Shown in pieces: positions 40,573-44,641 of a DNA stretch of 64,000 bases. Below the pieces are notes generated by a model. That model searched no databases. It was not told the origin of the DNA and worked only from the letters and a program-made list of their open reading frames with translations. The DNA is from Escherichia phage vB-EcoP-XT18: the sequence record OR757434.1; one strand, written 5' to 3'. Position 1 is the stretch's first letter, and every line of letters starts with the position of its first letter. The position numbers were made by a program, and so were the translations under genes.

Positions 40573-41349
40573 TTATACACGAGAAGTACGAATACCATAA
40601 ATATCAGGCAAGCTGCTCTGAAGCCGAGTCATGTTATTCGGAATTGCGATAGGTGAACCTGAGTACTCTTGTTTCTTATTCTGCTCTACCATTTCATCAA
40701 GGATAGCTTTTCCTAATGCTGACCATTTCTGAACTCCGTTGTCATCTTGAACAAACAAGCAAGCATGACGTAGAGTAAAGTACAGAAGAAGTTCTGGTGC
40801 GATAGTAAGAATAGCACTAGTGTCTGTGTCTTCATGGAATTCCGGTGGGTCTGCATAATAACTAAGAATTACTGAGTTTTCTGCTGGAATCAAAGGACTT
40901 CCATCATCAGGGTAATACGGAGTGTCTGCTTCGATGCTAGGATAGAAAATGAAACGACTACCGAAACGAGCAAAGTTAACAGGTTGATTGTTCCAATGAG
41001 ATGGGTTAATTGTTCCATGCTGTCTACGATAGCTAATCTCTTCAGGAGATGTTACTTGGAAGATTGTACCATCTTTGGCTCTCATCATCCATTGAGCTTC
41101 TAAGTAATCAGGAGGAATGTAAGCTACTCCATCTTTAATATCTAAATACACTTCTTTTTCCAGAGGAGGGATACGTAAATTACGATAAATCTCTTTCTCT
41201 GCAAAGTTAATAAAGTTTGGAATTTGATTAACAAATTCGTCATCGTCCCTATCTGCCCAGAGGGCCACGGCCTTCTTTAGCCACCCATAGGTATTGATGG
41301 GGTATTGAACGTCAGGCAACATAGGATACCTCCTTCCAGTTTGTGCCAT
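40573..41349 (-). CDS. structural protein, possible head-tail adaptor
   Basis: ORF between the capsid region and the tail fibre. Confidence 0.35.
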   Translation of the reverse strand: MAQTGRRYPMLPDVQYPINTYGWLKKAVALWADRDDDEFVNQIPNFINFAEKEIYRNLRIPPLEKEVYLDIKDGVAYIPPDYLEAQWMMRAKDGTIFQVTSPEEISYRRQHGTINPSHWNNQPVNFARFGSRFIFYPSIEADTPYYPDDGSPLIPAENSVILSYYADPPEFHEDTDTSAILTIAPELLLYFTLRHACLFVQDDNGVQKWSALGKAILDEMVEQNKKQEYSGSPIAIPNNMTRLQSSLPDIYGIRTSRV

Positions 41350-41824
41350 TGATTATCAGGCTTATTGTACTTGAAGAGACTCCAAACTTCCTAGCTAAAG
41401 CTCTAGCTCCGAACTGTCTGTCCCTCGGTTTATAGTTCTCTAAACAGAAAAGAACTTGTTCTTTAGTAAGTTTGGAATTAGGGTTATCCTCAAGATTTCT
41501 TGGTGTTGAGAGTTTTGTTTCATAAGCATGTACACAGTTTTCTTGTTGAGTACACCACTCTAGATTCTCAATCCTGTTATCATCTTTTATTCCATTCTTA
41601 TGGTTGACATAATCCTTCCCTTCTACTTTAGGAAGAAAGAGTTCAGCTATGACCCTGTGCTCTAGGTACGATTTCTTCTTGAAGGTTAGTACACGATATC
41701 CCTTATTATTAATACATCCAGCACGTTGCCCTTTCTGTTTATTGAATATGTTACTCATAGACCAGAAAAGATGCCCTGTATTTGGGTTATATGTAAAAGC
41801 TCCTCTGAAATCTGGCATTGCCAT
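41312..41824 (-). CDS. HNH homing endonuclease with C-terminal HTH, free-standing inside the late operon
   Basis: VNHKNGIKDDNRIENLEWCTQQEN; own promoter motif upstream. Confidence 0.75.
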   Translation of the reverse strand: MAMPDFRGAFTYNPNTGHLFWSMSNIFNKQKGQRAGCINNKGYRVLTFKKKSYLEHRVIAELFLPKVEGKDYVNHKNGIKDDNRIENLEWCTQQENCVHAYETKLSTPRNLEDNPNSKLTKEQVLFCLENYKPRDRQFGARALARKFGVSSSTISLIINGTNWKEVSYVA

Positions 41825-41857
41825 AGGTTGTCCTCCTTGTTATATGTAGACAAAGAA

Positions 41858-41866
41858 TATACATTA
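41858..41866 (-). promoter_or_regulatory. TAATGTATA, putative phage-sigma-dependent promoter
   Basis: minus strand reads GTGTAATGTATATTC about 35 nt upstream of the HNH start. Confidence 0.45.
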
Positions 41867-41889
41867 CACACTAGCTTGTATAGGTCTTA

Positions 41890-41920
41890 AAACGAAAAAA
41901 CCCCGCCCGAAGGCAGGGTC
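41890..41920 (-). terminator. rho-independent terminator (minus strand)
   Basis: CCCUGCC-UUCG-GGCGGGG then UUUUUUCGUUUU on the minus strand. Confidence 0.65.
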
Positions 41921-41925
41921 TAATT

Positions 41926-42474
41926 TTAAGCAGCAGGTGTTACACCTGTGAATTCACAAGTGGCTGTTACAAGAGGTTTAGTCTCGTGTGTAGCTGTAAC
42001 AGAGACTGCACCCGTAGCAGTATCAGCAAGAGTCAAAAGACCAGCTGCACTAACAGTGCCCGCTTCCGGAGGAGTTACCTCAAAAGTATAGTCACTTCCG
42101 GTAGAGTTTGTTGCTGTAAACATAGTAGAGAATGCGGTTGTTGATCCACCCACCTTCCCTGAAATCGGACCTCGGCTAACAAGGGTAGGTTCAGGGTCAG
42201 CAATAGCTGAGATCGTAGATGTACCGGATTTACCACCTTTAGTAGCTTTCACTGTAATCGGGGTTTCTTGCGACGCACTCGGTGCAGTATACAGTCCAGA
42301 AACAGAAATAGCCCCACCACCCTCAACGGACCAAACAAATCCAGTTGTTGATGTGGAGCTATCACTCATTTGTGCTGTAGCTGTAAACTGCTGAGTAGCC
42401 CCCGTCGGAAGGCTTGCAACCGACGAAGGACTAACAGTTATGGTATCTACTGTTACGCCGCCACTGCCTTTCCC
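41926..42474 (-). CDS. Ig-like (Big_2) C-terminal extension of the capsid protein, reached by -1 frameshift
   Basis: -1 frame is open from the slippery site to the stop at 41926; the Big_2-like sequence VTVDTITVSPSSVASLPTGATQQFTATA begins upstream of the first Met. Confidence 0.6.
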   Translation of the reverse strand, partial: GKGSGGVTVDTITVSPSSVASLPTGATQQFTATAQMSDSSTSTTGFVWSVEGGGAISVSGLYTAPSASQETPITVKATKGGKSGTSTISAIADPEPTLVSRGPISGKVGGSTTAFSTMFTATNSTGSDYTFEVTPPEAGTVSAAGLLTLADTATGAVSVTATHETKPLVTATCEFTGVTPAA

Positions 42475-43514
42475 GCAGCAGTGAACAGAACACCGGAAGC
42501 ATACGGGTTGCGGTGACGCAGACCAACTTCCATCTCAATCATCCATTTTTCGTAAGAACCATCTTTAGCCAGTTCAGTACGTTTCGGAGCACGCAGAACC
42601 ATCTGAGTCCAGTCAGCGCTACGGAAGAAGTAAACTGCATCGGTAGGCATCCAACGGTTAACGATGATTTTGTAGCTCTGGCCCAGCGGGTCAGTGATGC
42701 TGTTAACTTCGTAAATGAACTGCTTGGTGTTTTCAAAGATACGCTTACGTGAACCCTGAGTATTTTCTTGCAGACCAGCGAAGATCTTAGCATGAGCCGG
42801 GTTAATCATGATGATATCTGCTTCAGAACCAGCGGTGTACAGTTGCAGAGTCATATCAAAGATATCTGCTTCATCAAAGCCGATGTTAGTAGCCGGGTTA
42901 GAAGCGTTCTGTGCAACTTTAACAGTGATTGCACCAGTATCCGGGTCAGCAGGACCATTCTTGGTCTTGTCAACAACGCCGCCAGCCAGACCACCGTGAG
43001 CACACAGGAACTGGAATGCACCAGTCTTACGAGCTGCATGGGTGTCGTTCTTGCCAATCTGATCTGGGTCAGCGGCAGAGTTAGTCAGGTATTGGTCAGC
43101 CAGAACGTCGGTACGAGCCTGACCAGACAGAAGGATTTTCTCGAGGTCACGCTTGATCTCTTTACCTTTCTTCTCCAGCTGGTACATCAGTTCGCGACCA
43201 CGACCGTAGTTAGCGGTGGTGTTAGCAGTGTCAGAAACACGAACAACCTTACGCAGAATCTGAGTAACGTTAGACTTGATAACAGTCGGTTTCATTTCGC
43301 CGTCTTCAGCACGAGAGCCTTCGACGTGTGCGTTATTACCATCAACGCTTGCCAGTGCATCGGTCTGCCAGCTAAAGATAGTCTGGTTGATAGACTCTTT
43401 ACCGGTCATGGATACGAACGGGGTATCCTGAGGGGACAGAACAGAAATCCAGTTAGCAAAAGAAAGTTTTTTACCATTCTGGTCATACGATACAAATAAA
43501 GTTGGATTAGCCAT
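42453..43514 (-). CDS. major capsid protein
   Basis: 353-aa ORF directly after the scaffold gene; gene order and size. Confidence 0.7.
   Translation of the reverse strand: MANPTLFVSYDQNGKKLSFANWISVLSPQDTPFVSMTGKESINQTIFSWQTDALASVDGNNAHVEGSRAEDGEMKPTVIKSNVTQILRKVVRVSDTANTTANYGRGRELMYQLEKKGKEIKRDLEKILLSGQARTDVLADQYLTNSAADPDQIGKNDTHAARKTGAFQFLCAHGGLAGGVVDKTKNGPADPDTGAITVKVAQNASNPATNIGFDEADIFDMTLQLYTAGSEADIIMINPAHAKIFAGLQENTQGSRKRIFENTKQFIYEVNSITDPLGQSYKIIVNRWMPTDAVYFFRSADWTQMVLRAPKRTELAKDGSYEKWMIEMEVGLRHRNPYASGVLFTAAGKAVAA
42468..42474 (-). promoter_or_regulatory. -1 ribosomal frameshift slippery heptamer G_GGA_AAG
   Basis: GGGAAAG lies 5 codons before the capsid stop; same heptamer as the lambda G/GT frameshift site. 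Confidence 0.55.
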
Positions 43515-43555
43515 GTTATGTTAGCTCCTATACTATTAAATAATTAATTTGTCGA

Positions 43556-44641
43556 TTAATCTACGAGGAATTTGAATGCGTCTTCGTGACTAACGCGACC
43601 CTCTGCGAATGCCTTGGCAACCTTAGCGTTGTCTGGCTTATTGGAAGTACGAGACTTTGCAGCATCAGACTTCACAACCTTGCGTGGAGCACCGGGACGT
43701 TTAATCTTAGCCATCACCTGCTGCTTACCTTTATCAAATTGGTATGCTTTATGGAGAGCTAGGAAAATAGACGGACGGTTTTCCTTCAATACTTCTTCTT
43801 CAGTAGCACCTAAGTCAATTGCATATTGCATTAAGTTTTGATATAAGTTTTCATCCCAATTTGGAATCTCACGTTTCAGAATATTAACGCACTCAATACT
43901 TTTGGCTTGGAAAGCTTCCTGTTCTTTAGCTGCTGCTTCCTGCTTAACACGCATCTGAGCCTGTTCAAGCTGGTTACGACGAGCTGTGTACTTCTCTAGG
44001 AAACGTTTGTTTTCAACATATGCTTGAGGATCTTCTACTGCAAGCTTGTCCCAATCAAATCCGTTGTAATCTTCAATTACTCGGTCTGCTTCTAAAGACG
44101 CTAATTCTAATACATCCTTCAAACCTACTACACGTTCCTCAAATGCTTCCATGTGACGCTGAAGAGTTGATTCTCGTTCGGTCATGTCAGCACCAGTAAG
44201 ATAGCCATTGGAGAGTTCTTCAATAGTCATCTCACGTCCATCAGGAAGGGTGATAACGGTTTCGTAGTCTACATCAAAGACCTCACCATCACCGTCAGCA
44301 GAATCATCTTCATACCCTGCATCGCTTGAGTCTTCCTCTTCTGCTTCAGTGTTTTCATCACCTTCATCAGAGTCATCCCCATCTTCTTCGACTTCGCCTT
44401 CCTCATCATGATCTTCCCAACCATCTTCATCTTCGAACTTAAGCTCATCGCTTTCACCGAGAAGGTCGGTATCAAAGTCGAAATTGTCACCGGTATCTTC
44501 CGGGAACTCATCGTCAATGTCCACTTCTGGTTCTTGTTCAGATTCTAATCGACCAAGTTCTTCTTTAAAAGAACCTTTCAGGTCATCCAGTTGGAGGAAA
44601 GATTTAAAATCGTTCGGGTCAATATAATTATCTTGTGGCAT
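43556..44641 (-). CDS. scaffolding protein
   Basis: highly acidic Asp/Glu-rich N-terminal half, helical C-terminus, between portal and capsid. Confidence 0.6.
   Translation of the reverse strand: MPQDNYIDPNDFKSFLQLDDLKGSFKEELGRLESEQEPEVDIDDEFPEDTGDNFDFDTDLLGESDELKFEDEDGWEDHDEEGEVEEDGDDSDEGDENTEAEEEDSSDAGYEDDSADGDGEVFDVDYETVITLPDGREMTIEELSNGYLTGADMTERESTLQRHMEAFEERVVGLKDVLELASLEADRVIEDYNGFDWDKLAVEDPQAYVENKRFLEKYTARRNQLEQAQMRVKQEAAAKEQEAFQAKSIECVNILKREIPNWDENLYQNLMQYAIDLGATEEEVLKENRPSIFLALHKAYQFDKGKQQVMAKIKRPGAPRKVVKSDAAKSRTSNKPDNAKVAKAFAEGRVSHEDAFKFLVD

Follow-up and report, generated by a model that had tools for sequence, protein, structure and literature searches.

The major capsid protein gene of Kuraviruses, here studied in Escherichia phage vB-EcoP-XT18, very probably undergoes a conserved -1 programmed ribosomal frameshift, by which a part of the capsid subunits would be extended with Ig-like domains. 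The initial annotation of the sequence had proposed such a fusion of the capsid protein to an Ig-like domain, and the proposal is supported: the slippery heptamer is invariant and in register, the -1 frame behind it is coding, and the same event has been published for close relatives. Both the frameshift site and the Ig-bearing capsid form are already known for this phage genus; the finding is a correct rediscovery of a documented feature and opens no new question, and its value lies mainly in annotation, with some residual value also in a hairpin downstream of the slip site. It is a clear illustration of how Ig cassettes are exchanged in connection with a frameshift: one slip site is combined with cassettes ranging from two domains (169-180 aa) to 543-545 aa. 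The phages are under development against pathogenic E. coli and displayed capsid isoforms are therefore of practical interest for therapy.

All positions refer to the window, which is the whole analysed stretch of 64,000 nucleotides of sequence record OR757434.1 (Table 1). The window is from a Kuravirus (phiEco32-like podophage) of the subfamily Gordonclarkvirinae; at its positions 41850-43600, it matches Escherichia phage vB-EcoP-XT73 with 100% identity, and about 90 other phiEco32-like Kuravirus podophages with 87-98%. The genes are arranged on the minus strand in the order portal, small ORF, scaffold (44641..43556), major capsid protein (43514..42453), Ig-like ORF, terminator and tail genes. 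A terminator is annotated at the equivalent place in the records of SU10 and Paul.

Downstream of this terminator, the window has an HNH_3 homing-endonuclease ORF (170 aa, 41312..41824, minus strand) that is inserted 15 nucleotides into the head-tail adaptor gene and uses the former start of the adaptor (common residues MAMPD). The adaptor ORF (SU10_adaptor, 258 aa, 40573..41349) has acquired a new N-terminus. The insertion is carried by 11 of 95 related records; it is absent in XT73 and present in XT32 at 100% identity, and the window is thus 100% identical to XT73 at the capsid region and to XT32 at the HNH_3/adaptor region.

Table 1. Features of the capsid gene end, the -1 frame extension and the surrounding RNA elements (positions in the window)
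Feature	Position	Strand	Details
Major capsid protein gene, zero frame	42453..43514	-	353 aa, 38.8 kDa, HK97-fold, SU10_MCP family
Slippery heptamer G_GGA_AAG	42468..42474	-	X_XXY_YYZ register; zero-frame codons gcG GGA AAG
Zero-frame tail A V A A and stop	42453..42467	-	overlaps the -1 frame Gly/Ser linker G S G G V
-1 frame extension	41926..42468	-	180 codons and TAA stop at 41928..41926; proposed to be translated only after the slip
Ig-like domain 1 (Big_2, PF02368)	42232..42450	-	fusion residues 356-428; Pfam 24.7 bits, gathering score 22.8
Ig-like domain 2, divergent Big_2-like beta-sandwich	41938..42186	-	extension residues 95-177
Database-annotated ORF	41926..42369	-	147 aa, starting at the first ATG; given in this way in XT73 and NJ01
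Small alternative hairpin UAACAGU/ACUGUUA	42432..42455	-	begins at the capsid stop codon
Conserved RNA hairpin in the Ig-coding sequence	42383..42441	-	RNAalifold, 13 distinct junctions; alignment columns 34-92
Rho-independent terminator	41888..41921	-	terminator scan: 10-bp stem, 6 GC pairs, T tract; directly 3' of the -1 frame stop

Slip site and predicted capsid forms

The zero-frame product is readily identifiable as a major capsid protein: residues 12-344 match the Pfam family SU10_MCP (PF17236; E 1.5e-76, 258.1 bits with a cut-off of 24.1) and the best PDB match is the major head protein of SU10 (7z45, E 2.9e-231). At the end of the gene, the heptamer lies in the X_XXY_YYZ register of a -1 programmed ribosomal frameshift site. 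Its AAG codon is followed by GCA GTG GCG GCG TAA, i.e. by four sense codons and the stop; with the register computed, AAG is the fifth codon before the stop, just where the initial annotation had placed it. For E. coli, a 2016 review by Atkins rates G_GGA_AAG as 'highly shift-prone' (PMC5009743).

The sequence GGGAAAG as such is not enriched: the window has 8 copies while 7.2 are expected from shuffles, and enrichment of the bare heptamer was dropped as an argument for a frameshift. The copy in the capsid gene is the only one of the eight that is in register inside a long ORF; it is preceded by 349 open codons, compared to 14 or fewer at the other seven copies. Codon usage at the site is unusual too. 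The slip-site GGA is the only GGA among the 26 Gly codons of the capsid gene, and GCG is used for only 3 of the 38 Ala codons, all three of them within the last seven codons and the first one at the slip site itself. Together with the presence of the heptamer at 29/29 related loci, the usage of GGA and GCG indicates that the nucleotide sequence of the slip site is conserved more strictly than the protein alone would demand. A Shine-Dalgarno-like stimulator is not visible on reading the sequence within about 20 nucleotides upstream of the heptamer.

Along the capsid gene the -1 frame has many stops. It opens eight codons before the heptamer and then remains open for 180 counted codons after the shift, in agreement with the approximately 180 codons to position 41926 of the initial annotation. 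The predicted products are thus a protein of 353 aa (38.8 kDa) without the shift and a fusion of 529 aa (56.0 kDa), consisting of the capsid protein, a Gly-rich linker and two tandem Ig-like domains of the Big_2 type. The first domain is recognised by Pfam, while the second domain on its own stays below the Pfam threshold for Big_2 (18.5 bits, E 0.0019); it is this domain of which repeated copies are present where extensions are longer, for example in Paul and YF01. An AlphaFold model of the extension, based on 27 aligned sequences, has a pLDDT of 96.2 and predicts two beta-sandwiches (extension residues 7-86 and 95-177). Among PDB entries, Foldseek ranks LigA of Leptospira with its tandem Big domains first for this model (8gyr, E 1.5e-11, TM 0.55 over both domains).

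We propose the following mechanism. Most ribosomes would read GCG GGA AAG GCA GTG GCG GCG TAA and release the 353-aa capsid protein, while a minority would slip back by one base on G_GGA_AAG: the P-site tRNA-Gly would re-pair from GGA to GGG and the A-site tRNA-Lys from AAG to AAA. E. coli has a single tRNA-Lys, whose pairing with AAG is weak and which easily changes over to AAA. The slipped ribosomes would go on with GGC AGT GGC GGC GTA and finish at the TAA of the extension, just before the transcription terminator. Their 529-aa product would combine the complete HK97-fold capsid domain with a Gly-Ser-Gly-Gly linker and the two Big_2-type domains, and would co-assemble with the normal capsid protein, so that sub-stoichiometric subunits display Ig-like domains outside the prolate head.

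The frameshift frequency may be estimated from the approximately 3.5% of lambda G-T, which has the same heptamer, and the approximately 10% of T3 and T7. With an efficiency of 3.5-10%, random incorporation and the 715 capsid subunits of the SU10 head (PMC9509320), this would correspond to approximately 25-70 copies per head. The two predicted capsid forms could be distinguished by their peptides: Lys349 is situated exactly at the shift and the tryptic peptide NPYASGVLFTAAGK is common to both forms, while a peptide such as TAAGKGSGGVTVDTITVSPSSVASL, obtained with chymotrypsin or Asp-N, would be specific to the fusion. According to Fraser et al. in 2006 and to later work on mucus adherence, sub-stoichiometric Ig-like domains on phage heads are said to mediate weak adhesion to carbohydrate-rich surfaces; exposure of the Ig domains on the outer surface and a role in weak adhesion appear plausible for the fusion described here too.

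Conservation of the site and the status of the Ig-like reading frame

The heptamer is invariant and in register at 29 of 29 related loci, which cover Kuravirus, Nieuwekanaalvirus, Suseptimavirus and Privateervirus, the last with about 56% capsid identity. At all loci but one (28/29), the -1 frame stays open over a long extension (169-545 aa). The only indel between heptamer and stop is one of 3 nucleotides, which keeps the relation between the frames. The zero-frame tail varies among the relatives (AVAA, VAA, AGA, VAAA, VEA), while the -1 frame invariably encodes a Gly-rich linker and then VTVD.

Extensions within the Kuravirus group differ in length (178-545 aa) because copies of the second Ig-like domain have been gained or lost, which suggests rapid modular expansion of the displayed array. 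The capsid genes of Privateervirus (Proteus phage P59, Cronobacter phage 009) have GGGAAAG directly followed by TAA, and their -1 extension consists of an I-set and a Big_2 domain, a cassette unrelated to the Kuravirus extension. The same heptamer is thus found before unrelated Ig-like cassettes, indicating that the slip site has been conserved and the displayed domains have been swapped.

Further relatives from Vibrio, Aeromonas-like and uncultured sources have 55-65% capsid identity, and L010-L014 and Vp_R1 among them have no in-register heptamer at the capsid C-terminus. The 366-aa gene that follows the capsid gene of Vp_R1 has no Pfam match. One further relative (L015) has A_AAA_AAG one codon before the stop and a -1 extension of 42 aa that is rich in Pro, Val and Lys; this may be a different frameshift tail. 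When metagenome contigs were scanned with the 16-nucleotide DNA pattern ACYGCTGCGGGAAAGG, no new Kuravirus junction was found among the matches listed after filtering for the capsid motif. A pattern of this size is too short for metagenome contigs, and the matches listed were chance matches. The scan of viral contigs with the DNA pattern returned only five contigs, all of them already in the comparison set.

In most GenBank records, the Ig-like ORF is annotated as a separate gene. It would then be translated from its own start, either the ATG at 42369 or by termination-reinitiation, to give a free decoration protein or minor capsid protein, and the cryo-EM paper of SU10 likewise treats gp10 as a separate protein (PMC9509320). 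In the window, the first Met of this ORF is fusion residue 383 and lies 27 residues inside the first Big_2 domain, which begins at residue 356, confirming that the domain starts upstream of the Met; there is no Shine-Dalgarno sequence at this Met. In phiEco32-type phages, a GTG 11 nucleotides past the capsid stop is available and has been annotated as the start of gp12, but the corresponding codon in the window is ATA. The first ATG, GTG or TTG of the -1 frame after the shift is found at codon 8, 15, 16, 33, 46 or 60, depending on the relative, none of them with a Shine-Dalgarno sequence, and no conserved start or Shine-Dalgarno sequence for the downstream ORF was found at 24 loci.

The 83 nucleotides between the capsid stop and the first Met have a coding signal in the -1 frame only. 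Variable alignment columns at codon positions 1, 2 and 3 of the -1 frame are 7/28, 6/28 and 19/27, respectively. Codons that differ from the window are approximately 10 synonymous to 6 nonsynonymous in this frame for four of the five relatives compared, while the other two frames have approximately 2 to 14. Across 13 sequences, the segment has no stop at all in the -1 frame, compared to 30 and 26 stops in the other two frames. As the segment is protein-coding but has no start, it can be reached only from the capsid frame. Together with the 55.4-kDa capsid form reported for SU10 (PMC4281155), this makes a separate gene highly improbable. The doubts of the initial annotation about a stand-alone gene were justified: with no Shine-Dalgarno sequence, no conserved start and coding constraint upstream of the Met, the ORF at 41926..42369 is, as judged from the sequence, probably an artefact of ORF calling.

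The annotation of this junction differs between database records. Of the 29 records examined, 27 list a separate truncated 'hypothetical' or 'Ig domain' ORF rather than a joined capsid CDS, as do XT73, XT32 and NJ01, the records closest to the window. The start codons of the 'Ig domain protein' are placed at differing internal positions across GenBank. A capsid CDS is missing altogether from the NJ01 record (JX867715.1), the ShigP1 record calls both ORFs 'major head protein', and a joined CDS is present only in Paul and YF01. In XT32, the Ig ORF is annotated with only 108 aa despite 99.8% identity to the window across the region; the extension may be truncated or re-phased by a sequence difference in XT32.

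The two ORFs differ by a frame shift of a single base, which is also what a sequencing or assembly error within one gene, or transcriptional rather than ribosomal slippage, would produce. The identical arrangement of frames in 29 independently sequenced genomes argues against an error, and the solved head protein of SU10 is the short 352-aa form. For transcriptional slippage, GGGAAAG offers runs of only three identical bases, and runs of this length are far too short for efficient slippage of RNA polymerase. We consider the chance of either explanation to be negligible.

A programmed frameshift could still yield a fusion that is dispensable in this lineage or left out of virions, i.e. a tolerated by-product. 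The deposited SU10 sequence lacks the extension, and yet the phage is viable and its head shows uniform capsid protein only; how many Ig-like domains are present also varies freely (extensions of 169-545 aa). A mere by-product is nevertheless very unlikely: a long extension that is open and under coding constraint has been kept at 28 of the 29 loci, the heptamer has been kept in two separately classified lineages (Gordonclarkvirinae and the family Grimontviridae) despite exchange of the downstream domains, and a minor capsid form was detected in purified Privateer virions (PMC7881722).

RNA structures around the slip site

A 3' stimulatory structure approximately 5-9 nucleotides downstream of the heptamer is common but not obligatory in bacterial -1 sites. 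The initial annotation had suggested a search for a downstream stem-loop. There are hairpins 12 and 26-37 nucleotides 3' of the heptamer, neither of them at canonical spacing, and no canonical stimulatory structure at 5-9 nucleotides.

The longer of the two hairpins has its base 26 nucleotides 3' of the heptamer and its supported upper stem at approximately 35 nucleotides (26-37 nucleotides overall). In the well-supported upper stem, 42433..42420 is paired with 42408..42396. Across the alignment, 97.8% of the cells are paired, compared to 26-48% when the partner is slid by 1-3 columns, and the covariation score was reached by none of 500 shuffles. Pair 54-68 is GC in five sequences, AU in five and UA in three, exchanges that represent only about three independent events. 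It links the third position of a Ser codon, which is synonymous, with position 2 of a variable codon for Pro, Leu, Glu or Gln, and this coupling of a synonymous to a nonsynonymous position argues for selection at the RNA level. The lower stem was not retained: it has poor support and its pair 36-90 is broken in ECBP2 and ev_rybdy8.

The small hairpin is situated 12 nucleotides after the heptamer (9 nucleotides in phiEco32-type phages) and cannot form together with the lower stem of the long hairpin. In energy it is similar to the MFE structure, while covariation is uninformative, because both arms are invariant in all junctions of the Kuravirus group. One further hairpin, which carries the heptamer in its loop (CUGCUGC/GCAGUGG), was set aside as stimulator, because its 5' arm would be inside the ribosome during the slip and because the Gly codons of the linker in the -1 frame account for its G-rich 3' arm. 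A stem-loop containing the slip site itself is the only one described in the SU10 paper (PMC4281155).

The papers cited here do not mention the downstream long hairpin, and the hairpin with its compensatory changes is possibly a new element. That the hairpin at 42441..42383 tunes the frameshift from its non-canonical distance of 26-37 nucleotides, as stimulator or attenuator, is a tentative idea drawn from the sequence, and a rather doubtful one; tuning would perhaps involve a switch between the long hairpin and the UAACAGU/ACUGUUA hairpin at the capsid stop. There is a precedent for long-range 3' effects in T7 gene 10 (PMC5009743).

Published capsid isoforms and related systems

For several relatives, the extended capsid form has been reported. 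The SU10 genome paper describes slippage at GGGAAAG 'as in phage phiEco32', and its mass spectrometry gave the capsid protein in two forms, of 38.5 and 55.4 kDa (PMC4281155); our predictions for the window are 38.8 and 56.0 kDa. The YF01 paper reports the heptamer and an extended Ig-bearing isoform in 'YF01 and other group phages' (PMC9965538). A joined CDS is present in GenBank for Paul and YF01, in the case of Paul with the note 'Frameshift at GGGAAAG' and with reference to PMID 18294652. Mass-spectrometry support for the long form of phiEco32 is cited second-hand, from PMC7881722 and the Paul record. In Privateer, the long capsid form was detected in virions, and the authors state that the capsid bands need further verification (PMC7881722). 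From these data on congeners, the long form would be expected to be made, and to be present in virion preparations, in the phage of the window too.

In SU10, cryo-EM shows no Ig-like density on the head (PMC9509320). The deposited SU10 sequence (KM044272.1) has an insertion of one nucleotide about 30 nucleotides past the capsid stop in comparison to all relatives, GTCTACTGTT against GTGACTGTT; the extra base had been remarked on by the authors of the YF01 paper (PMC9965538) and is confirmed here. It leaves a -1 extension of only 11 aa, and the Ig ORF comes to lie in the zero frame of the capsid gene, behind the stop. The insertion may explain why the extended isoform is missing in the cryo-EM of SU10, but it is at odds with the 55.4-kDa form reported in 2014. 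It has no bearing on the window, where the extension is intact.

The closest systems are those of the Kuravirus group itself (phiEco32 gp11/gp12, SU10 gp9/gp10, YF01 gp8, Paul CPT_Paul_009/010): the capsid genes are homologous with 87-100% nucleotide identity, the identical heptamer is at the same codon, the Gly-rich linker and the first Big_2 domain are homologous and a terminator follows the extension. The differences are not essential ones. Heptamer and stop are one codon further apart in the window than in phiEco32, and the nucleotide identity of the Ig part to phiEco32 is only approximately 70%. Paul and YF01 have five or more domains (543-545 aa), while the window has only two (180 aa). 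Privateervirus (Proteus phages Privateer and P59, Cronobacter phage 009) shares the capsid family with approximately 56% amino acid identity, G_GGA_AAG at the capsid C-terminus and an Ig-like extension, here of 169 aa; it differs in that the heptamer abuts the stop codon and in its unrelated I-set and Big_2 cassette.

More distant parallels are 10A/10B of T3, gp5A/5B of Lactobacillus phage A2 and 10A/10B of T7, where a -1 frameshift near the end of the capsid gene likewise produces a minor subunit with a C-terminal extension (PMC5009743). These are other phages with other slip sites; the T7 site is of the G_GU type and needs a long-range 3' element in the terminator (PMC5009743). The initial annotation had drawn the analogy to T7 10A/10B, and this analogy is correct for the mechanism but not for the domain: the T3 and A2 extensions are Ig-like and the T7 extension is not (PMC5009743). 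For the window, T7 10A/10B is therefore a functional analogy only.

The closest structural analogue is found in PDB 6qvk ('Major capsid protein', 448 aa) and related entries, in which the C-terminus of the capsid protein constitutively carries a Big_2 domain. By sequence, residues 343-418 of the 6qvk chain correspond to fusion residues 351-426 (E 9.6e-4), and the Big_2 domain is joined at an equivalent point of the capsid protein. We take 6qvk to be gp8 of phi29, which is a prolate podophage. The difference is in the mode of expression: the Big_2 domain of 6qvk is encoded in frame and present on every subunit, while that of the window would be present only on the frameshifted fraction.

The slip site of lambda G-T has the sequence G_GGA_AAG. 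Slippage in the tail assembly chaperone genes G/G-T of lambda is an equivalent -1 event, with a frequency of approximately 3.5%, and has been cited as such in the YF01 paper (PMC9965538). In contrast to the capsid fusion described here, the lambda product is a tail chaperone and is absent from the virion.
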